Source of the DNA: Candidatus Krumholzibacteriales bacterium
Lineage (GTDB): Bacteria > Krumholzibacteriota > Krumholzibacteriia > Krumholzibacteriales > WJIX01
Assembly (NCBI GenBank): GCA_046483305.1
Contig: JAWODM010000021.1
Location: 691 to 64,690 of the forward strand
Reading direction: 5' to 3'
DNA length: 64,000 nucleotides
The notes beneath the pieces were generated by a model. It saw only the letters and a program-made list of their open reading frames with translations. It was not told the origin of the DNA and ran no database searches. This document shows positions 8,641 to 61,668 of this stretch, in pieces. Each line of letters begins with the position of its first letter. Position 1 is the stretch's first letter. The translations under genes and the position numbers were made by a program.

Positions 8641-9927
8641 TCAGACCCAGCCGCGTTCCCTGCAGGCTTCCGCTACCCTTCCCACCGCTATCACATAAGC
8701 CGCATCGCGCGCGTAAAGGCCCTTGGATTTTCTCATCTCATTAACGGCTTCGAAGGCGTTTGTTATCTGGGTATCGAGTTTGCCGATAACCTCGTCCTTC
8801 TCCCAGAAATAATTCATGTTGCACTGAACCTGCTCGAAATAGCTGCAGGTAACCCCTCCGGCGTTGGCCAGAAGATCCGGAAGCACGAAAATATCCCGCT
8901 TCGCGATTTCCTTATCCGCTTCGGGCGTGGTAGGGCCGTTTGCTCCCTCGGCAATTATCTTTACCTTTTCGCTGATCTTGCCCACGTTATCAACGGTAAT
9001 CTGGTTTTCCAGAGCCGCCGGGACAAGAATATCAACATCCTGCTCTATCCAGGCATCCCCGGGGAGAACTTCGTAGCCGAGCCCATCAGCCTTTTCCTTA
9101 TCGATACCTCCGAAACGGTCGGTTATACCCTGGAGCTCCTCCAGATTGATGCCGTCGCTCTTCCTGAAACTGTATGAAGTCTGGTCCTGCTGATCCCAGC
9201 ATGATACGCATATGACCTTGCCCCATATCTGGGTGTAGAGTTCGATGGCGTACTGGGCCACATTGCCGAAACCCTGGAAACTGGCGGTGGTGTCGGCTGG
9301 AGGTATATCCAATTCCTTCAGAGCCTCCCGGACGTTGAATATAACTCCGTAACCGGTGGCCTCGGTCCTCCCCAGAGAACCACCCATACCTACCGGTTTG
9401 CCTGTGATGAATCCGGGCAGTTTCTCTCCCCTGACTGTCTCAAATTCATCCAGCATCCACAGCATGTGCTGGGGATTGGTCATAACATCGGGAGCGGGAA
9501 CATCGTTCAGTGGGCCGAGATTCTTTGACAGCTGCCTGACCCAGCCCCGGCATATCCCCTCCTGCTCTCTCTGGCTGAGATCGTGAGGATCGCAGATCAC
9601 GCCGCCCTTTGCGCCTCCGAGAGGAATATCCACAACCGCGCATTTCCAGGTCATCCACATGGCCAGAGCGCGGACAGTATCTATTGTTTCCATCGGATGA
9701 AAACGTATTCCGCCCTTTGCAGGCCCCCTGGCATCGTTATGCTGAACCCTGAACCCCCTGAATACCTGAACATTTCCGTCGTCCATGCGGACCGGAACGC
9801 TCACATGATATTCCCTCTGGTTGAATCGGAGCAGATCCCTGGTCCCCTGCTCCAGTTCCAGCATATCGGCGACACTGTCGAACTGAGCCTGGGCCATCTC
9901 GAATGGATTAAAAGACTTGTCAGCCAT
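8641..9927 (-). CDS. gdhA: Glu/Leu/Phe/Val dehydrogenase (glutamate dehydrogenase)
   Basis: RGPAKGGIRFHP, PLGGAKGG, VPAPDV, GGSLGRTEATGYG, GFGNVA, EGANGP and NAGGVTCSYFE motifs. Confidence 0.93.
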   Translation of the reverse strand: MADKSFNPFEMAQAQFDSVADMLELEQGTRDLLRFNQREYHVSVPVRMDDGNVQVFRGFRVQHNDARGPAKGGIRFHPMETIDTVRALAMWMTWKCAVVDIPLGGAKGGVICDPHDLSQREQEGICRGWVRQLSKNLGPLNDVPAPDVMTNPQHMLWMLDEFETVRGEKLPGFITGKPVGMGGSLGRTEATGYGVIFNVREALKELDIPPADTTASFQGFGNVAQYAIELYTQIWGKVICVSCWDQQDQTSYSFRKSDGINLEELQGITDRFGGIDKEKADGLGYEVLPGDAWIEQDVDILVPAALENQITVDNVGKISEKVKIIAEGANGPTTPEADKEIAKRDIFVLPDLLANAGGVTCSYFEQVQCNMNYFWEKDEVIGKLDTQITNAFEAVNEMRKSKGLYARDAAYVIAVGRVAEACRERGWV

Positions 9928-9969
9928 TTTCCCTACATCCTTTCCGGTTAAGATGCGTTATACTTTTGC

Positions 9970-9998
9970 AAAATAAGTATTGGATTCTGTAAAGTCAA
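9970..9998 (-). promoter_or_regulatory. Putative sigma70 promoter of the gdh operon
   Basis: Minus strand TTGACT-17 nt-TATTTT about 40 nt upstream of the gdh ATG. Confidence 0.45.
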
Positions 9999-10081
9999 GG
10001 AGGGTATAGAATAACCGATATCAAGCTATTATATAACGAGTTACCATCTGGTTTAACGAAGTTCAGCGGAAACGCCGGCCC

Positions 10082-10513
10082 CTACTCCGCCTCAACCTCC
10101 CCGGCATCACAGAGCGCTTTCAGCCTCTTCAGTAACAGCAGGATCACCCCGCTGCCGCACATTGCCGCGAAGTGCCCCTCGCAGAAACGCTCCTTCCTCA
10201 CATGAAGGGTCAGAAGCTTTCGAACGGTGAGCAGGTCGGCATGAGCAATCAAATCCGGATCATTGCATATCCGTTCGGCCTCTTCCTGCCACCCTCCCCA
10301 GTCAAACGGACGGATGAGCCCCGAAGTGCTGATGTATGAAAGCACCCTGCCGGTAATATCAGAGAATTTATAGGGTCCCAGGAACACGGTATTCCCATCA
10401 GATGTGATATCATGCTCTCCCCATGAGCCGCTGCGGCTTTCCATTTCCGGTATCAGAGAGATCAGCCTTTCCAGGCCCTCCCGGTTTATGGCAACCCGGT
10501 CATCATTCATCAA
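10082..10513 (-). CDS. DUF6508-like protein
   Basis: PFDWxxW..ADLLTVRKLLTLHVRKERFCEG..GVILLLLKRL pattern recalled as DUF6508; ATGA overlap with upstream gene. Confidence 0.7.
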   Translation of the reverse strand: MMNDDRVAINREGLERLISLIPEMESRSGSWGEHDITSDGNTVFLGPYKFSDITGRVLSYISTSGLIRPFDWGGWQEEAERICNDPDLIAHADLLTVRKLLTLHVRKERFCEGHFAAMCGSGVILLLLKRLKALCDAGEVEAE

Positions 10514-11178
10514 TGCCTCTCGAGGTTATCAGCCGGATCAGTCCGCCCCCGCTTAACCACTATCACATCGCCGCTTCCCAGATCGGGCATATCTTCTTCG
10601 AAGCGGAGATAACCTTCCGCATCAGAAAAATATCTTTTCCCCCTGATAATAACTTCCGAATTCTCCGCGAATTTCCGCTCCCCTATAAGCATCAGTGACC
10701 GCCTGCCGGTATCCTCGTCCCTTGTTTCCCTGATTATCAGATCACCGCCTGGCGTGGAAAACCTCATTGCCTTCTTCTCGGCTCCGGAGGTTGAGGCGGC
10801 CAGAGACAGCTCCGGTTCCCTCCGGGCCTCAGGTGAATCAAAACGCAGAATCCTTATATCCCGGCTCTTTCCCCACTCCACGTCCAGATGCTCTCTGACC
10901 CGGTCGCACTGATCCGTACGGCGAAGCTCCCTCTCATACTCTTGAAGGTATTCAACTTCTCTGATAATCCTATCCCGGCACTTTCTGCAGACTTTTATGT
11001 GTTCTATGGACTTATCCTTCCCCCTCACATAGAAAAGGCTCTCCGGAATTTCATCCATCGAGCCTTTATCACTATCCCCTCCGGTCCCCTCCCTGGTCAG
11101 TATTTGAACAGCGAGATCCCCGATTCCCCTGTTCGAAAGACAGGAAATGTTATTATTTCTGTTCTTCATAGAACTCAC
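10510..11178 (-). CDS. Soluble zinc-binding anti-sigma-like (ZAS/zf-HC2) protein with beta-rich C-terminal domain
   Basis: H60-IKV-C64-RK-C67 followed by a charged helix, upstream Cys13; no TM helix; true start may be ATG at 11169. Confidence 0.55.
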   Translation of the reverse strand: MSSMKNRNNNISCLSNRGIGDLAVQILTREGTGGDSDKGSMDEIPESLFYVRGKDKSIEHIKVCRKCRDRIIREVEYLQEYERELRRTDQCDRVREHLDVEWGKSRDIRILRFDSPEARREPELSLAASTSGAEKKAMRFSTPGGDLIIRETRDEDTGRRSLMLIGERKFAENSEVIIRGKRYFSDAEGYLRFEEDMPDLGSGDVIVVKRGRTDPADNLERH

Positions 11179-12235
11179 CTTTTATATGGTACAAAAGACC
11201 CGGAATGCATCTGACTTTTTCGATCCACAGCTTTTCCGCTCTTTTTATGAGGTTCTGAAGACACCCCTTGTATTTTTCTCTGTATTCACAGGCCCCGCAA
11301 CGAACATGCGGCTCAAGGTACCGCCGCGTCGATTGTGTATCTTTCAAACCGAGATCTAAGAGGTAATCTTCCACTGCGTTAAGTATAGCTTCTCTGGTAT
11401 CATCGTCGAAAGGGTTTCTCCAGCTGTAGCTTCTTCGCAACTCTTCCGCGACTTTCAGCGATATATCCGAGAGTTCCTTCTGCAGGAAAAGATCGAATGT
11501 GGACAGCCGTTTTTTCATCAGGCAATCTGAGCGGTCTGACTGCAGATCGATGATTGAAGCTACCAGGGCATCCCTTTTAACCCTGCTCTGAAACTCCACA
11601 CTCTCTGCCAGAACTTCAAATATGGCATCCACTATAACAGGAACGCTATCCCCCGGTGATACTGCCGGGCCGCACAGGGTTAGTATATCTTCCTTCTGCG
11701 GCGGGCGTGAATTATTCGAAGCGGCCTCGATATATGAATCGATGATAAAAGAGCCCTCTCTGACAAACCGTTCACTTCCTGATATATAGGCGCCAAGATT
11801 CCGGCCGGTCCTGATATACTCCGGATCGGCGAACCTCTTCTTCATGCGGATATGATTCGAATATCTGATTCTTACCGCCGCTCTGAGATAATAGTAAATG
11901 TCAAGAGGTTCCGGGTCGGCAGTTTTACTGAAGAATCTGTTTATCACATGAACCAGCTCAAAAGGCCCGTTGTTCCTTCTTCTTATAAAGAAGGGAGTTA
12001 TTATGTCAATCCCCGCCTGCCCTCTATCATAATCGGCCAGGATTTCACCTGATTTTCCCTGGATGAGAAGCCGCGCCATGGCGGACATGTGATTAATAAT
12101 TACGATAAAATCTCTCTCTCTTTCAGCCTCCGCGATTATCAATTCGCTCTCGGTGAACTCTCTGCCGGGGGGCGAGAATGCGTCCCTGACCCTTGAACAT
12201 GCCTCGAAAAGCTGCTGGATTGAAGTTTTGATCAT
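11153..12235 (-). CDS. Hypothetical helical protein, possible divergent ECF-type sigma factor
   Basis: 360-aa ORF in tight operon; QAGIDIITPFF and DIYYYLRAAVRIRYSNHIRMKKR resemble sigma regions 2.2 and 2.3-2.4; function is inference. Confidence 0.4.
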   Translation of the reverse strand: MIKTSIQQLFEACSRVRDAFSPPGREFTESELIIAEAERERDFIVIINHMSAMARLLIQGKSGEILADYDRGQAGIDIITPFFIRRRNNGPFELVHVINRFFSKTADPEPLDIYYYLRAAVRIRYSNHIRMKKRFADPEYIRTGRNLGAYISGSERFVREGSFIIDSYIEAASNNSRPPQKEDILTLCGPAVSPGDSVPVIVDAIFEVLAESVEFQSRVKRDALVASIIDLQSDRSDCLMKKRLSTFDLFLQKELSDISLKVAEELRRSYSWRNPFDDDTREAILNAVEDYLLDLGLKDTQSTRRYLEPHVRCGACEYREKYKGCLQNLIKRAEKLWIEKVRCIPGLLYHIKGEFYEEQK

Positions 12236-12241
12236 AGAAGC

Positions 12242-14554
12242 CTACTCCGCTATCTGTTCAGAACTCCGTTTATTCTCCAGTTCGGCAACCAGTTTCTCAT
12301 ACTTCGAATTAACTGCCGGCCTGTCGACCCAGCCGCTTCCATCGAAATACCTGAATCCCTTTTTCAGTCTTTCACCTTCGGCTGCGAGCTTATCCGGCAG
12401 ATCTTCCTCTCCGATATCAAAAACCCTGGCGTACATTACTTCATACGGATCGGTGAATACCGCTTCGCAGCATGACATTCTGCTGTCCATTTCATATATA
12501 ATGGCCGATTGTTTTTCAGCACCTGCATTTTCTCCAACTCCAACTATCATTCTACCGTCCGGGCCAACAGTTATATCATTAATCCTTGGTCTGTAGCAAT
12601 TATTAAGTTCTTTGCATAAGACAGAAACAGGTGTCTTTATATAGTATAATGCAACATTATCATAATCATCCATATCAATTTCTATAATACCTCCGGCATC
12701 ACGTTCTTCCATTACCAGGGGATCCAATGCGGCAATAACGGCATACTCAGTAATCGTTTTTTCGTTCCTGTCCCCCGCCAGTACGATCTCCGTCCTGCCA
12801 TCCTGGTTAAAATCGCCAGTTATAAACCTCTTCAGATGGCCTCTATGGAAGTAGTATCTCATTGTTTCATTACTGAAGTTAACCACGGCCGTCAAAGAGG
12901 GAGAATAGGCAATATCTGTTGCCGCGATAACCAGCTCGCCGGAGCCGTCGCCGTCAAAATCAGCCAGCTGATCGTAGCAGTAGGAAAAATCGGAATAGGA
13001 GCGAATATTCCCGCTATTATTTATTAAAAGACTGTCCCACAATACCAGATGGCTCAGAAGCTCTCCCGAATTTGAGAACAGATGAGTATGGATCCTGCCG
13101 ACCGGCTTGGTGGCATTCGGCTCAGATTCCACACTGACCAGCAGGAATTCCTTTTCTCCGTCTCCGTTGATATCGGCCAGGTACTCCCGGTGAGACTTTG
13201 AACTGGAATCAGTATAAACATTCTTCTTCTTGAAGATGTAATAACCGGGCGTATAGGAATCAAAACCGTAACCGTACCTGTTAAAGAATGTTACAGTTTC
13301 ACCATCGAATTTATAACTGTGGATACCGCGCTCGAAACGGGCGGGAATGAAAACCGCCACCATTACGGCAGCAATGCAGGCCGCCGCGGCGGCGAAGAGA
13401 TGTTTCCTCCATATCCTGGCTCTTCCCATTAATAATTTAACAGGGGGGATCGTTGATTTTTCCACTATATCAGGATTATCGTAAACCTCGCTGACATGAG
13501 AGGCGGGAATAAGTTCGAGCTTCCGGCCAGGGTACTTCCGAGATAGGGATGCGAGCTCCGCGGATGCGGCTTCCAGGTTTTCCTCAGGCAGCACAAACCG
13601 CCTGCATGGAGAATAAAAAGCAGCGCCTGTCTTGAATGGTATATCTTCATCCTCTACTCCCGTAATGCCGCCATCTCTATCCACTCCTCCGGTAAACACC
13701 GCGTCTTTTCTCACCCTGCGCCGGATGGAGGAAGATGCAAGATTATCAAGAGCGGCCCCAGCGAGCAATGTAAAGGCGAGCCCGGCAGAGCCGCCGGTAA
13801 ACTTATCCGCCCAGTCTTTCCCGCAGCCATTACCACTTATACCGAAACAGTACACTCTGGGTATCCGAACCGCCTCCCATCCGCTGTATCCCCCTTCAAT
13901 CGAGCGTTCGGCGTATCTGACAGAGTTCTCCAGCTGAATCATGAAAGGGTCCTGCTCTGCTCTGACTCTCTTTTCGAATGATATGAAAGGTTCCACGGGC
14001 CTGAACAGGCTGCCCTCTCCCGATATCTCAATCTTCAGCCCTCCCCTCAGGACCTTCCCTGTATTGAACATAATACCCTTTTCCGAAGATAACGCCGAAA
14101 CCAGAATAATATTCACAGAGTCACTACTGGACGAATCTCTGTACTGATGAATTTCCGATCTCTGATCCTCTTCCAGCTCGCTCTCATCCACTTCTCCCAG
14201 AATAGAGAGGTAGTAATTGAGCCTCTTTTTCAGTGAAGACTTGAGAGAGTCAAACTCTTCACCGGAAGCAGCCGGCTCGACGCGGGCAATATTATCCAGC
14301 AGTTCGGGCAATATCCGCACTGTCCTGAAGTTAAGGAATTTAACGGTTTCGCTGTTCAATGATTCCAGTAATGGATAAGCATTCAGTTTGAGGTAAGAGC
14401 GGCAGGATGAAGGCTCCAGGTGCAGGATGCAGTAATGAAGAACCAGGGCGGCCTGTTCGAGATAAAGCAGATTCCTGGTATCGCCTTTCACATTAGCCAG
14501 GAACTCTGCTAATATATCATCAATATCTCTTACAGTAAGCTTACAGTTTTTCAA
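12242..14554 (-). CDS. Single-pass membrane protein: cytoplasmic Lon-type (S16) protease domain plus extracytoplasmic FG-GAP/VCBS-repeat domain
   Basis: FTGGSAGLA (S256), DAVFTGGVDRDGGITGV, IPFKTGAAF (K308), FVLPEENL and ELIPASHVSEV follow Lon_C order; TM about 385-404 after RARIWRK; three D-x-(N/D)-x-DG repeats; TTG start. Confidence 0.75.
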   Translation of the reverse strand: MKNCKLTVRDIDDILAEFLANVKGDTRNLLYLEQAALVLHYCILHLEPSSCRSYLKLNAYPLLESLNSETVKFLNFRTVRILPELLDNIARVEPAASGEEFDSLKSSLKKRLNYYLSILGEVDESELEEDQRSEIHQYRDSSSSDSVNIILVSALSSEKGIMFNTGKVLRGGLKIEISGEGSLFRPVEPFISFEKRVRAEQDPFMIQLENSVRYAERSIEGGYSGWEAVRIPRVYCFGISGNGCGKDWADKFTGGSAGLAFTLLAGAALDNLASSSIRRRVRKDAVFTGGVDRDGGITGVEDEDIPFKTGAAFYSPCRRFVLPEENLEAASAELASLSRKYPGRKLELIPASHVSEVYDNPDIVEKSTIPPVKLLMGRARIWRKHLFAAAAACIAAVMVAVFIPARFERGIHSYKFDGETVTFFNRYGYGFDSYTPGYYIFKKKNVYTDSSSKSHREYLADINGDGEKEFLLVSVESEPNATKPVGRIHTHLFSNSGELLSHLVLWDSLLINNSGNIRSYSDFSYCYDQLADFDGDGSGELVIAATDIAYSPSLTAVVNFSNETMRYYFHRGHLKRFITGDFNQDGRTEIVLAGDRNEKTITEYAVIAALDPLVMEERDAGGIIEIDMDDYDNVALYYIKTPVSVLCKELNNCYRPRINDITVGPDGRMIVGVGENAGAEKQSAIIYEMDSRMSCCEAVFTDPYEVMYARVFDIGEEDLPDKLAAEGERLKKGFRYFDGSGWVDRPAVNSKYEKLVAELENKRSSEQIAE

Positions 14555-14604
14555 ATGCTTATTAAGTTGGATTTATGGTGTTAGTACTGCTTCAATGATT
14601 CTAA

Positions 14605-14633
14605 ATTATACTGTAAAATAAGCACTCTTTCAA
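14605..14633 (-). promoter_or_regulatory. Sigma70 promoter of the Lon-receptor operon
   Basis: Minus strand TTGAAA-17 nt-TATAAT, 50 nt upstream of the TTG start. Confidence 0.7.
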
Positions 14634-14869
14634 TTATTTTGTCGTTGCCTGATAAGATTGATATATTGCCGTGTGATAACTTCTTCCATTTCGACCCGCC
14701 TCTATGCTGACATCTTACCCCAAATGGCACAGCCATTTTTCCATTACCACCTTCTAAGATGGGGTTCTCTGTTTGAATTTTGCTCAAAGATTGATTTTGC
14801 CATTTATCGGTTTCCCATACCTGATCTATCACATGCTGGCATATTCAGAGCAGAATAAATCCCGGAGAA

Positions 14870-17218
14870 CTATCTCAGCAGCACGATTCTCCTGGTTCTG
14901 CTGAAATCGCCGGTTTCCATTCGAATGAAGTATACTCCCGAGACTACCTTCTCGCCCTCACCGCTATTCCCATTCCAGATCACCCGGTTGTTTCCCCCAT
15001 TGAATACCCGGTCTGCAAGTACCACAACCCGGGCTCCCCGCACATCGTATATGGAAAGCTTAACCGGCCTGCTCCTATCCAGGGTGAATTCTATCTCTGT
15101 TCTCGGATTGAACGGATTGGGATGAGGCGGATGCATCCGGACCGGAAGTAATGCCTGATCCTCCGCTGAGGTAATCCCCTGCTGATATGTCATTGAAACT
15201 TCTGTTAAAGTGGGTGAATTCCCGCTCGAACCAAGAGCAAAATTAACTCTGTACTGGAAGTATCTATCCGGAGCCGACTGAACCGGCCCGCCGTTTTCAG
15301 CGCTTTTCCACACCTCCCAGCTTATACCATCCGGGCTGACTCTGGTCTCTACAACCAGCGAATCATCCCTGGATGCCGGATCGGAGACAGCCATCCCTCC
15401 CTGGTAATTCAACCAGTCACCGCTGCCGCTGCTACCGGTATAGGGGCTGTACCATTTTTCATTGTGGTAATGTATTGCGCCCCTGACCAGTTTATCGTCG
15501 TCCCAGGAGCCGGAAGGCCCCCGTTCGATTTCAGGCCGGTCGGGACGGTGCCAGGGACCGTAGGGATCGGTAGCCCAGGCACACCCCAGCTCCCAGTGTT
15601 CGTTTGCGTAGCTTCCGGTATATCGCATATAGTAAATATCATCCACCTTGATAATACTCGGATCCGCTGTGAGCCCGCTGTCCCATCCTTCGGGGTCGGG
15701 GTCATGCGGGAGTACCAGCCCGTGCTTGGTCCACAGACCGCCGGCTTCGGGGCCCAGCGGAAAAAGCTCACCGGTGGTGGTAGCCAGTCCGATCTGCTCC
15801 GCGCATCCGAGACAGCCGTGATCCCCCATATAGTACATGAAGTAGGTATCGCCTTCCCTGAAAACGAAAGGCTCGGTTACTCTGAGGTCATCCCACTGCC
15901 CGGATGAACCCAGTTCCAGTATGATCGATCCCCTGGTCCATGGCCCGGTAGGGGCGGGAGCGGTCGCATAGGCAACCCGCTGTTTGTGATCGCTGGACAG
16001 CCTGACGTCATACACCATGTAATAGGTGCCATCATCAAGAAATAGATTCGGCGAAAAGACGTAATCCTCACCGGCAATGGGAGAGATCACCGGATTCGAT
16101 TCATAGTCGTTCCAGATCAGAAGCTCAGGATCGGTTGAATAAGCCAGCCGGATTGTCTGAATCGAACCGCTGGAGTAGCATAACCAGTATTTACCATCGT
16201 ACTGTATCGGCTGCTGAAGGGGATCATCAATATTAACCAGTATATTTTCGGGTAATGACCCTGGGCCCGTAATCGGGTTCCCCTCATATTTTACCCAGCC
16301 CTGCCAGGGATAAGGGGTCGGTGGAACTTCCGTCCATCTGATGGTATCAAGCTCTACGGCCTGAAGATCGATTACTTCAGAGGTATAGGTGCCGGTACTG
16401 TAACTGGCGCTGTCAAGAGAAGCAAGCCGAATATGGTCAACGTGAAACTCTGCCAGCCCGCTCTCGCTTACCCGCGAGAATGCCAGGGGCCTGATCTTCC
16501 TTTCCGATACAGCATTCCTTATATCACCATTGAGTTCACCGATCCATACATCGTCACGGTAGATCTGGACAGGCAGGCTCGAATCCGTAAAATCACATTC
16601 CAGGCGAATGGTATACCACTGGCCTGTTTCAGTCGATATATCGAAGTAATTGATGATCGGATAGTTATTGCCAGTGGTCCCTTCACGGTAAAAGGAGACC
16701 ATTCTGTCTCTGAATATGTCCATTCTGAAACCCAGATCTGTTCTAAGTATATCCAGCCTGCAGGAAGCCCCGGTGGGCTGTTCCACCATGGGATCAGCCA
16801 CTCCACTCGAATCTATGGCATCGAAGTAAATCATAAATTCGATACTGCAACTGTCAGGGATGGCTATATCTGATCTTGCCGCATAGGACCAGGAGCCGCT
16901 CTCGGAACCCACGAACTGGGCTGCCAGATGAATCTGTCCATCGGGGTCTTCTTCCGCGATATTTCCTGCTTCATTTGTATCGTATGTCCACCCGGAGATA
17001 TTATAATCTTCGAATGTCCAATTGAGGAAGTGGTAGGTCCCGATACTGATTTCGGGGTTATCCTCGGTTCCCTGAAGAACCGTATTGAAAAAACTGCCCG
17101 TTTCGAAATCGGTACGGGTGGTATGGGTCAGGGTGTCCGAAAGGACAGGGTTAAAAGAGATAATTGTAAGGATTACGAAAAGAAAGAGCCGTTTGCTAAA
17201 GCAGTACCTGGTGCTCAT
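14870..17218 (-). CDS. Secreted glycoside-hydrolase-like five-bladed beta-propeller protein (GH43/32/130-like) with C-terminal FlgD-Ig/T9SS-type sorting domain
   Basis: Signal peptide; KYEGNPI, repeated WDD..EP/ADPS..YYMYY blades; C-terminal PNPFNPRTEIEF..SIYDVRG..SGVYFIRM. Confidence 0.75.
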   Translation of the reverse strand: MSTRYCFSKRLFLFVILTIISFNPVLSDTLTHTTRTDFETGSFFNTVLQGTEDNPEISIGTYHFLNWTFEDYNISGWTYDTNEAGNIAEEDPDGQIHLAAQFVGSESGSWSYAARSDIAIPDSCSIEFMIYFDAIDSSGVADPMVEQPTGASCRLDILRTDLGFRMDIFRDRMVSFYREGTTGNNYPIINYFDISTETGQWYTIRLECDFTDSSLPVQIYRDDVWIGELNGDIRNAVSERKIRPLAFSRVSESGLAEFHVDHIRLASLDSASYSTGTYTSEVIDLQAVELDTIRWTEVPPTPYPWQGWVKYEGNPITGPGSLPENILVNIDDPLQQPIQYDGKYWLCYSSGSIQTIRLAYSTDPELLIWNDYESNPVISPIAGEDYVFSPNLFLDDGTYYMVYDVRLSSDHKQRVAYATAPAPTGPWTRGSIILELGSSGQWDDLRVTEPFVFREGDTYFMYYMGDHGCLGCAEQIGLATTTGELFPLGPEAGGLWTKHGLVLPHDPDPEGWDSGLTADPSIIKVDDIYYMRYTGSYANEHWELGCAWATDPYGPWHRPDRPEIERGPSGSWDDDKLVRGAIHYHNEKWYSPYTGSSGSGDWLNYQGGMAVSDPASRDDSLVVETRVSPDGISWEVWKSAENGGPVQSAPDRYFQYRVNFALGSSGNSPTLTEVSMTYQQGITSAEDQALLPVRMHPPHPNPFNPRTEIEFTLDRSRPVKLSIYDVRGARVVVLADRVFNGGNNRVIWNGNSGEGEKVVSGVYFIRMETGDFSRTRRIVLLR

Positions 17219-60309: not shown

Positions 60310-61668
60310 TTAACCGAAGACATTAAATATATCCAGAGCCATTACCAGAACCATTAGAATAATCAGCAGGATGAATCCTGCCTGCATCATGGCATTCTTA
60401 ATCCTGGCATTAACCTGCCTGCCGCTGATCCCCTCAGCCAGGTAAAGCACAAAGTGCCCCCCGTCGAATGGAAGAAGGGGAAACAGATTAATAATGCCCA
60501 GGTTAATAGAGAAAAAGGCGATGAAGCTTATCAGGTAGTTAAAGCCCCACCTGACCATATCTCCGGCCATTTTACCTATCCGCAGGGGGCCTCCCACCGC
60601 CTTTACACTGGCCTTTCCGGTGACAAGTTTCTTCAGGAAATCGAGTATCCTGACCGTCATTCTCCAGAACGCCGTGGAACCGTAACTTGCCGCCTGTATA
60701 AATGATACATCTTCCTTGAGATAATATTCCTTTATCCCGATGCTTCCGGCCTCCACCACGTCAAGCTTCTCACCGCCGGATGGCAGATCGATCGATTCGG
60801 TTTCGAGTTCCGCGGTATGCCTGACACCATCCTGTTCCCAGGTAATACTGATTGTCTCATCCAGGCTTTTATGAATCCTTTCGGCTACTTCGTTGAAGGT
60901 ATAAACTGCGGTATCATTTATGGAAACTATGTAAGCCCCGTTCCTTATCCCAGCTTCCCAGGCCGGCGATTCCTGCTTGACATCGCCTACCCTTGGCGGG
61001 ACCCCCAGCGCCAGGCCCACCGTATGTCTCCCCAGCTCCTCATTATAAGTCGGAGCTGCCGATAAAGTGATTATTTCCGATCCCCTCTTGACCCTGAAGT
61101 TCATTTTCTGATCTTCATCCCCGGAAACAAAGGAACTCAGACCCCGTTCAAAGGTCAGGGGCTCACCGTTTACCCCCAGTATTCTGTCTCCCCGCTGAAA
61201 TCCCGCTTCCATGGCCGGTGAATTCTCCACTACCTGATCGACAACCCCGTACGGTTCGGTCTTGTATACCCCCTGAAACCAGATGCTGCCGATGTAAAGT
61301 ACCAGGGCAAGCAGCAGATTCATTGCCGGCCCGGCCAGTATAATGCTTATCTTGCGCCAGGGCGATTTGGCCCTGAAGGTCCGGTGCTCGGGTATATCTT
61401 CTTCCCTGTTATCACCGCCGGAATCTTCTTCATCCTCCTCTTCCTCCTCTTCAGTCTCCCCTGCAAACTTGTTATAGCCTCCGAACGGGATTATGGAGAT
61501 TGCGTATTCGGTTTCGCCATATCTGAGTTTCAGTATCTTTGGCCCGAAACCTATGGAGAAAGTCAGGACATAAACGCCGTTAAGCTTTGCCAGAATGAAA
61601 TGCCCGAACTCGTGGACAAACACCACCACACTCAGTACAAAAACAAAAGAGATTATGGTTAAAAACAT
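60310..61668 (-). CDS. rseP: RIP metalloprotease RseP
   Basis: HEFGH, AGPAMN, two PDZ domains and NLFPLLPFDGGH. Confidence 0.95.
   Translation of the reverse strand: MFLTIISFVFVLSVVVFVHEFGHFILAKLNGVYVLTFSIGFGPKILKLRYGETEYAISIIPFGGYNKFAGETEEEEEEDEEDSGGDNREEDIPEHRTFRAKSPWRKISIILAGPAMNLLLALVLYIGSIWFQGVYKTEPYGVVDQVVENSPAMEAGFQRGDRILGVNGEPLTFERGLSSFVSGDEDQKMNFRVKRGSEIITLSAAPTYNEELGRHTVGLALGVPPRVGDVKQESPAWEAGIRNGAYIVSINDTAVYTFNEVAERIHKSLDETISITWEQDGVRHTAELETESIDLPSGGEKLDVVEAGSIGIKEYYLKEDVSFIQAASYGSTAFWRMTVRILDFLKKLVTGKASVKAVGGPLRIGKMAGDMVRWGFNYLISFIAFFSINLGIINLFPLLPFDGGHFVLYLAEGISGRQVNARIKNAMMQAGFILLIILMVLVMALDIFNVFG

Follow-up and report, generated by a model that had tools for sequence, protein, structure and literature searches.

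How could a single bacterial membrane protein turn a signal that arrives outside the cell into proteolysis inside it? Transmembrane signalling in bacteria proceeds through phosphorylation, through second messengers and through the stepwise cutting of membrane-spanning anti-sigma factors. The question is raised here by a gene in a 64,000-nucleotide stretch of DNA from a Candidatus Krumholzibacteriales bacterium (GenBank assembly GCA_046483305.1, contig JAWODM010000021.1, positions 691 to 64,690 of the forward strand). This whole stretch is referred to below as the window, and positions are given in its own numbering. The gene encodes a 770-amino-acid (aa) protein in which a Lon-type protease domain lacking an ATPase module is joined, by way of one transmembrane (TM) helix, to an ectodomain of the FG-GAP type. 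An earlier note on this DNA, made from its letters and open reading frames (ORFs), had proposed that clustering of the ectodomain by a ligand switches on cytoplasmic proteolysis. In this work we describe the protein, its relatives and its genomic context, and find that the protease gene heads a conserved operon together with two soluble cytoplasmic partners, d1 and d2, which the earlier note had overlooked. This conserved cassette supplies the protease with a candidate substrate and a candidate output. By analogy, and with a probability that we put at roughly 0.5, we suggest that the three proteins form a transmembrane version of the CalpL/CalpT/CalpS relay, in which an outside signal would be passed inward by the cutting of d2.

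A Lon-type protease domain with a near-invariant Ser-Lys dyad

The gene and the parts of its product are located as follows:

12242..14554, minus strand: ORF of the 770-aa membrane Lon-type protease with FG-GAP ectodomain
14150..14554, minus strand: helical N-terminal domain, predicted cytoplasmic, residues 1-135 (AlphaFold2 (AF2) helices over residues 8-140, with a per-residue confidence (pLDDT) of 85-98)
13424..14149, minus strand: Lon (S16-type) proteolytic domain, residues 136-377 (S256 codon at 13787-13789, K308 codon at 13631-13633)
13343..13399, minus strand: single TM helix, residues 386-404
12245..13333, minus strand: FG-GAP/VCBS-type beta-propeller-like domain, predicted extracytoplasmic, residues 408-770 (three D-x-[DN]-x-D-G loops and a C-terminal helical tail)

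Every motif quoted in the earlier note was found where it had been placed, namely the Ser motif GGSAGLA (residues 254-260, containing S256), AVFTGGVDRDGGITGV (residues 285-300), the Lys motif FKTGAAF (residues 307-313, containing K308), FVLPEEN (residues 320-326) and RARIWRK (residues 378-384). The description of the protein as ATPase-less is borne out as well: a regular-expression search found neither a Walker A nor an hhhhD[DE] pattern in the protease, and Pfam and NCBIfam scans placed no AAA family on it. In the AF2 model, which was built from 100 sequences and replaced a six-sequence model in which residues 140-277 had fallen below a pLDDT of 50, residues 1-135 form a helical bundle. Among the phmmer matches listed, this N-terminal part is covered only in closer relatives, the more distant ones aligning over approximately residues 190-370 or 250-370.

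The residues of the putative catalytic dyad are conserved to a degree close to invariance in an alignment of diverse relatives (S256 in 145 of 146, K308 in 148 of 150), and the G-x-S-x-G and K-x-x-x-x-F-x-S motifs that surround them are conserved too. The spacing of 52 residues between Ser and Lys, for which an insert had been supposed, is confirmed and proves to be a trait of the family, being shared by 136 of the 144 aligned relatives in which Ser and Lys both occur. The corresponding distance in E. coli Lon is about 43 residues, and a residue-level alignment to the family shows LonC to be 7 residues shorter in the stretch that joins the Ser helix to the TG strand.

Comparison of a 150-member family profile with the PDB gave 33 matches at E ≤ 0.01, of which 28 are Lon or Lon-like proteins and 5 are FG-GAP propeller proteins. 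On the Lon side these include a LonC-type protease (4fwd, E 2.3e-8), A. fulgidus LonB (E 1.1e-7) and the Lon proteases of E. coli, human and Thermus. The family's GdSiGLA segment was aligned onto GDSAGLA of LonC and the family Lys onto the LonC Lys motif, and the K308 segment was also aligned to LonB by a smaller, six-sequence profile. The assignment is made on profile and fold because Pfam Lon_C gives no direct match to this protein; among 63 relatives scanned, Lon_C was matched in 5 at E ≤ 0.01, with 2 of these reaching the 21.1-bit cut-off. A non-Lon, S5-like fold had been raised as an outcome to be reckoned with, and the fold found is that of a Lon proteolytic domain, not merely a generic S5-like one. 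Together with the conserved dyad this upholds the claim of a Lon protease domain: the cytoplasmic domain has the Lon (S16-type) fold, retains the dyad and falls below the Pfam Lon_C threshold. We predict that it acts as an ATP-independent Ser-Lys protease. A single-sequence phmmer search of the PDB returned only chance matches, to Atg8 (E 0.27-0.77).

Membrane topology and the propeller ectodomain

A single TM helix had been proposed, with a positively charged flank on its inner side, and both features were recovered. Residues 386-404 give the sole Kyte-Doolittle (KD) peak of at least 1.4 (2.54) and coincide with an AF2 helix over residues 383-407; five Lys or Arg lie in the 15 residues before the helix versus three in the 15 after it, and a bias of Lys and Arg towards the preceding flank was seen in all 7 sequences scored. 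Hydropathy analysis found no N-terminal hydrophobic segment able to serve as a signal peptide or otherwise to export residues 1-385. Because of this charge bias and the lack of an N-terminal hydrophobic segment, the protease is likely to be a single-pass inner-membrane protein with its N-terminus inside and its C-terminus outside, a topology that was derived from these features and not from a topology predictor. The same two features speak against the N-out orientation that the earlier note had considered.

The ectodomain is identified as FG-GAP by several lines of evidence, as had been claimed. Pfam FG-GAP (PF01839) scores 29.7 bits on the protease against a cut-off of 22.1 and is the only family to pass, PF13517 remaining under its own cut-off (24.0 versus 26.9 bits), and FG-GAP-type families match 24 of the 63 relatives. 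In addition, the family profile matches a hemolysin-related propeller structure (6mlt, E 2.1e-10) and CRTAC1 (9etn, E 1.3e-8), followed by the further FG-GAP propellers 4cag, 2z8r and 2zuy, which include PL11 rhamnogalacturonan lyases. The three loops of Ca-binding type are present as DINGDGEKE (residues 461-469), DFDGDGSGE (residues 532-540) and DFNQDGRTE (residues 581-589), and the AF2 model is beta-rich over residues 413-700, with helices over residues 702-769.

A conserved three-gene cassette

Downstream of the protease gene the following features were found:

11153..12235, minus strand: d1, 360-aa cytoplasmic partner of no known family, starting 6 bp after the protease stop
10510..11178, minus strand: d2, 222-aa soluble anti-sigma-like partner of the zinc-binding anti-sigma (ZAS) type, overlapping the end of d1 by 26 bp
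10978-11001, minus strand: H-x3-C-x2-C zinc motif of d2 (H60, C64, C67)
10792-10803, minus strand: L-A-A-S patch of d2 (A127, A128)
10082..10513, minus strand: DUF6508 gene, overlapping the d2 stop by 4 bp (Pfam PF20118, E 2e-30)

Conservation of the cassette was assessed in 13 loci around relatives of the protease, drawn from 12 genomes of the same order. d1 adjoins the protease gene in all 13, being broken into pieces in one and cut by the contig end in another. d2 was found in 10 of the 13 by tblastn and in 2 more by reading of the ORFs, giving a d2-like ORF in each of the 12 loci with sequence beyond d1; the remaining locus ends right after d1. The broken copy of d1 belongs to a Candidatus Krumholzibacteria metagenome-assembled genome (MAG) in which d1 is split by frame breaks in one cassette (locus L018, identical to L004, 10925-11736) and intact in a second (locus L023).

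The distribution of the two genes across the phylum follows the same pattern. A full-length protease gene occurs in 16 of 201 sampled genomes and d1 in 15; the two share genomes, the odd one out having its protease gene cut at a contig end, and since these genomes are kin the agreement is to be read as a pattern and not as a statistic. Linkage also extends to a distant subfamily of the protease, represented by two metagenome-contig loci. One of these is ordered as a 336-aa gene, a 229-aa gene and the protease gene, and its 336-aa protein, encoded two genes upstream of the protease, aligns with the C-terminal part of d1 over 100 columns (hhalign probability 89%, E 2e-6).

The DUF6508 gene was rejected as a member of the cassette, as tblastn found no match to it in any of the 13 relatives' loci, and it is best described as an add-on in its own genome. 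A canonical extracytoplasmic-function (ECF) sigma gene was likewise rejected as a conserved neighbour: such an ORF occurs in the flanks of 4 of 16 loci, all of one genus, at distances of 0.8-7.3 kb. In the window no ECF-like sigma ORF was found over the first 30 kb, and no recognisable sigma factor adjoins d2. NCBIfam matched none of the four products (protease, d1, d2 and the DUF6508 protein).

An anti-sigma-like partner with an Ala-Ala patch

Of the two partners, d2 offers the clearer sequence signals. Residues H60, C64, C67, A127 and A128 are invariant in 10 aligned sequences, the first three forming an H-x3-C-x2-C motif, which we take to be a ZAS motif, and the Ala pair lying within an L-A-A-(A/S) patch. 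Precisely at the segment with the zinc motif, the d2 profile matches the anti-sigma-W factor RsiW (5wuq_C, E 1.8e-4), and a very weak match was obtained to M. tuberculosis RslA (E 0.48). Pfam zf-HC2 (PF13490) is matched by 1 of 10 d2 members (E 3.2e-4), the d2 of the window itself being without a match.

Among 14 d2-like proteins, an x-A-A patch is present in all (12 by pattern and 2 by alignment), and in the 10 pattern-matched d2 members of the near clade its distance from the C-terminus stays constant at 86-94 residues. Both small proteins of the distant subfamily likewise keep an (A/S)-L-A-A-S patch, a likeness that is seen by eye. The overall layout of d2 comprises an N-terminal zinc anti-sigma-type domain, the Ala-Ala patch and a C-terminal domain of approximately 87-94 residues. 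No TM segment was found in d2, whose maximum KD value is 0.62.

Family size and annotation

The protease family is large and has gone almost without a name. With residues 1-393 as query, phmmer recovered 553 cluster representatives at E ≤ 0.001, of which 106 remain at E ≤ 1e-10. Of 150 aligned relatives, 110 are 650-850 aa long (median 757), and most share the same layout. Public records give members no name beyond hypothetical protein or VCBS repeat-containing protein, those with a label coming from MAGs of Latescibacteria/Latescibacterota, Krumholzibacteria and Marinimicrobia, and a cluster look-up of 10 diverse members returned almost no names. A literature search, which did not cover supplementary files, turned up no account of an FG-GAP ectodomain linked to a Lon-type protease; a survey of proteases from 2008, in the part of it available to us, ties FG-GAP to trypsin-family proteases and not to Lon (PMC2605481).

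The genome from which the window comes contains one further, weak match to the Lon portion of the profile (G000:C5:31191-31532, E 5.3e-8), within a 780-aa open frame, which is probably the canonical Lon protease of this organism.

A proposed outside-in relay and the alternatives to it

The cassette invites comparison with the CalpL system. As set out in the preprint on that system, the SAVED-Lon protease CalpL, when bound to cyclic tetra-adenylate (cA4), assembles into filaments, by which it is activated, and cleaves the anti-sigma factor CalpT, a step proposed to take place in trans between neighbouring subunits. The N-fragment of CalpT ends in ...PEDTLQLAA, a C-degron for cellular proteases, and destruction of CalpT frees the ECF-like sigma factor CalpS (bioRxiv 10.1101/2024.05.08.593097).

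In a transmembrane version of this relay, a ligand or envelope cue on the propeller would alter the oligomeric state of the receptor. The Lon domains, once brought together, would cut d2 within the L-A-A patch or close to it, and the new ...AA C-terminus would mark the N-terminal fragment of d2 for housekeeping proteases, so that the partner bound by d2, most likely d1, would be freed as the output. A receptor protease activated by clustering, as the earlier note had envisaged, would be consistent with CalpL, whose filament formation activates a Lon-type protease.

Several observations weigh against this relay. In the case of the protease itself, Pfam Lon_C (PF05362) gives no match even at E ≤ 1. 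The zinc motif is found in only 10 of the 14 d2-like proteins, being absent from two truncated or degenerate ones of the near clade and from both of the distant subfamily. Within that subfamily the 229-aa protein was rejected as a homologue of d2 (hhalign probability 1.1%, not significant), and the other locus (L036) has a small gene only beside the protease and no d1-like gene. As for d1, none of 12 members has a match in Pfam, the PDB holds no match to it and named relatives are likewise lacking; when d1 was tried as a sigma factor by hhalign comparison with ECF sigma factors collected from its own and related genomes, the probability was 0.24% with 4 sequences and 0.36% with 12. Docking of protease residues 1-385 with d2 gave a score of 0.42, against 0.00 for the best of 3 controls; in this band a pass is wrong in most cases if the pairing was not already a likely one.

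Of 80 solved complexes, 58 attain the docking mark, as do 2 of 110 mismatched pairs, and scores of 0.60 or less take in only 7 of those 80 complexes, together with both of the mismatches that pass. The docking runs agree in at least 68% of contacts with a partner pLDDT of at least 59, no interface being reported, and the support that they lend to a contact between the protease and d2 is weak. For d1, the ESM Atlas placed residues 1-175 with two clusters at 0.88, below the reliability line, whose members have Sigma70_r2 in 19% and 27% of cases, and the whole protein with unnamed clusters only. Given the lack of Pfam, PDB and named relatives, the low hhalign probability and an Atlas lead that stays below threshold, we do not call d1 a sigma factor, and judged by sequence it is not recognisably one.

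These features of d1 leave room for a different division of labour, in which the Lon domain would cut d1, converting it from a latent to an active form, d2 would act as adaptor or inhibitor, and the outcome would be envelope-triggered defence or stress killing and not transcription, as in protease-effector modules. Such a role would suit a protein without recognisable DNA-binding or sigma features that is the most strictly co-distributed of the partners and is common to the distant subfamily. However, the zinc motif of anti-sigma type and the invariant pair of Ala residues both belong to d2. Moreover, no defence island or CRISPR/cas genes were found among the 39 other large ORFs of the window that were scanned, which encode ordinary housekeeping and signalling functions, and PADLOC returned a single weak match on the protease (CARF_LON, E 0.069) and none on d1 or d2. 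We consider activation of d1 by cleavage to be rather unlikely.

Another explanation would make the protein a motor-less protease for housekeeping or quality control in the membrane, comparable to the membrane-bound LonB of archaea; it would trim unfolded or membrane-proximal proteins, the propeller would serve as an anchor or bind the envelope, and d1 and d2 would be accessory. Its nearest relatives in sequence and structure, LonA, LonB and LonC, do carry out bulk degradation, and LonC is itself an ATP-independent Lon-like protease according to PDB entry titles. A patchy distribution (16 of 201 genomes) is ill-suited to housekeeping, however, the 780-aa frame in the same genome may already supply a canonical Lon, and the strict linkage to two specific partners, one of them of anti-sigma type, points to a dedicated substrate, all of which renders general quality control improbable. 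Still more doubtful, and in our estimate very unlikely, is a catalytically silent scaffold, an adhesin or receptor that would use the Lon fold for binding or oligomerisation and would sequester its partners. The missing Pfam Lon_C match and a Ser-Lys spacing 9 residues longer than in canonical Lon could be read in this way, but preservation of the dyad in 145 of 146 (Ser) and 148 of 150 (Lys) relatives, along with the surrounding motifs, is hard to explain without catalysis. Taken together, the ordinary chromosomal context, the patchy distribution, the dedicated partners and the near-invariant dyad make these three explanations the less likely ones.

A broader form of the relay by d2 cleavage would hold that these proteins constitute a class of one-component receptor-proteases widespread in uncultured bacteria of the Fibrobacteres-Chlorobi-Bacteroidetes (FCB) group (hundreds of clusters), in which the propeller would control oligomerisation of an ATP-independent Lon domain, a soluble partner would be cut at Ala-Ala, a degron would be made and d1 would be freed, being either a transcription factor of a new type or a sigma factor that has diverged very far. 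This extended statement is tentative, and the odds lean against it in its entirety. If it is true, a receptor with its own ATP-independent cytoplasmic Lon-type protease would represent a further self-contained signalling route, and the principle of CalpL would be extended from CRISPR immunity to sensing of the outside world. Furthermore, a three-gene module with a predicted cut site is compact, and could serve as a programmable outside-in protease switch.

Variation of the ectodomain among relatives

In relatives of the protein, the protease gene is at times duplicated in tandem, with two full-length copies standing back to back in one genome (G021), and at other times encodes a protein of approximately 1085-1105 aa in which a second copy of the ectodomain is fused or adjacent at the C-terminus. 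Examples of duplicated or extended protease loci are:

Locus L016, 8450-13019
Locus L022, 9252-12506
Locus L024, 8312-11575
Locus L027, 8268-11588
Locus L023, 8081-11372

These extra ectodomain copies and tandem genes suggest that the sensor part has been expanded in a modular way. Elsewhere in the phylum, many proteins of 430-500 aa (and some of 680-760 aa) align to the profile solely in its TM-proximal and propeller region, from approximately position 380-530 onward, as in the following propeller-only examples:

G124:C246:4263-5237
G131:C2:114436-115101
G109:C1:140085-141098

Since many proteins match this part of the profile alone, the ectodomain type also occurs without a Lon domain, possibly with other cytoplasmic modules.

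Gene start and chromosomal context

The protease ORF (12242..14554, minus strand) has 770 open codons from a TTG, and the database copy is 749 aa long, with a start 21 residues downstream. Upstream of the longer form lies one candidate promoter:

14605..14633, minus strand: promoter-like site TTGAAA-17-TATAAT, approximately 50 bp upstream of the TTG start

The site matches the consensus in 11 of 12 positions, which makes it the top of 14 sites in 9800-15000, and is a consensus match only. Because relatives align at the N-terminus from approximately residue 5 and this promoter-like site lies upstream, the TTG start of the 770-aa form appears plausible from the sequence.

Cassettes of this family are often flanked by genes for secreted enzymes with a C-terminal sorting domain of type IX secretion, among them:

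14870-17218, minus strand: GH43-like flanking protein (Por_Secre_tail, E 1e-4)
Locus L016, 14937-16964, and locus L021, 4614-6650: large flanking protein ending in a similar sorting tail, in two relatives

A link between these flanking enzymes and what the propeller senses is possible. At a distance from the cassette, the window encodes a site-2 protease (60310-61668, minus strand; Peptidase_M50 with PDZ domains, RseP-type, E 1.7e-68) beside dxr and cdsA. The presence of this canonical RseP-type enzyme indicates that the organism also has the classical intramembrane route.

Comparison with known systems

Among the Lon-type proteases of MEROPS family S16, LonC (MtaLonC, or TTC1975 peptidase), LonB and LonA differ from the present protein in having an AAA+ or degenerate AAA-like ring module, which is lacking here. 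The Ser-Lys spacing is 52 residues here, and the aligned segment of LonC is 7 residues shorter. Unlike in these enzymes, a TM helix connects the proteolytic domain to a propeller on the outer side, and two dedicated partner genes accompany it.

In the RsiW (PrsW, RasP) and RseA (DegS, RseP) cascades, membrane-spanning anti-sigma factors are cut by separate periplasmic and intramembrane proteases. The relay proposed here would resemble them in converting an outside signal into the destruction of a zinc-type anti-sigma domain, with an Ala-Ala C-terminus passed on to cytoplasmic proteases, and the d2 profile does match RsiW. It differs from them in that the anti-sigma-like d2 is soluble (maximum KD 0.62) and in that the receptor bears its own, putatively active, cytoplasmic protease.

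The closest functional parallel is offered by CalpL, as described in its preprint. In both proteins a Lon-type Ser-Lys protease without an ATPase module is joined to a helical N-domain and to a sensor, and both are encoded with a soluble anti-sigma-type partner and a third protein. An L-A-A site is present in CalpT and d2 alike, the fragment of d2 beyond its Ala-Ala patch measuring approximately 94 residues. In contrast to the cytoplasmic, cA4-binding SAVED domain of CalpL, the sensor here is an FG-GAP propeller placed behind a TM helix and predicted to be extracytoplasmic; Pfam found no SAVED match, and the 39 other window ORFs scanned include no CRISPR genes. Unlike CalpS, the third protein is 360 aa long and not sigma-like by sequence. 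CalpL structures are absent among the listed profile matches at E ≤ 0.01 and among the listed fold matches, and for this reason we see no evidence of close kinship to CalpL beyond the Lon fold: the protein would work like CalpL without being a member of its family. Signalling by a Lon-type protease through an anti-sigma-like substrate is of a known kind, and what would be new here is its transmembrane arrangement.

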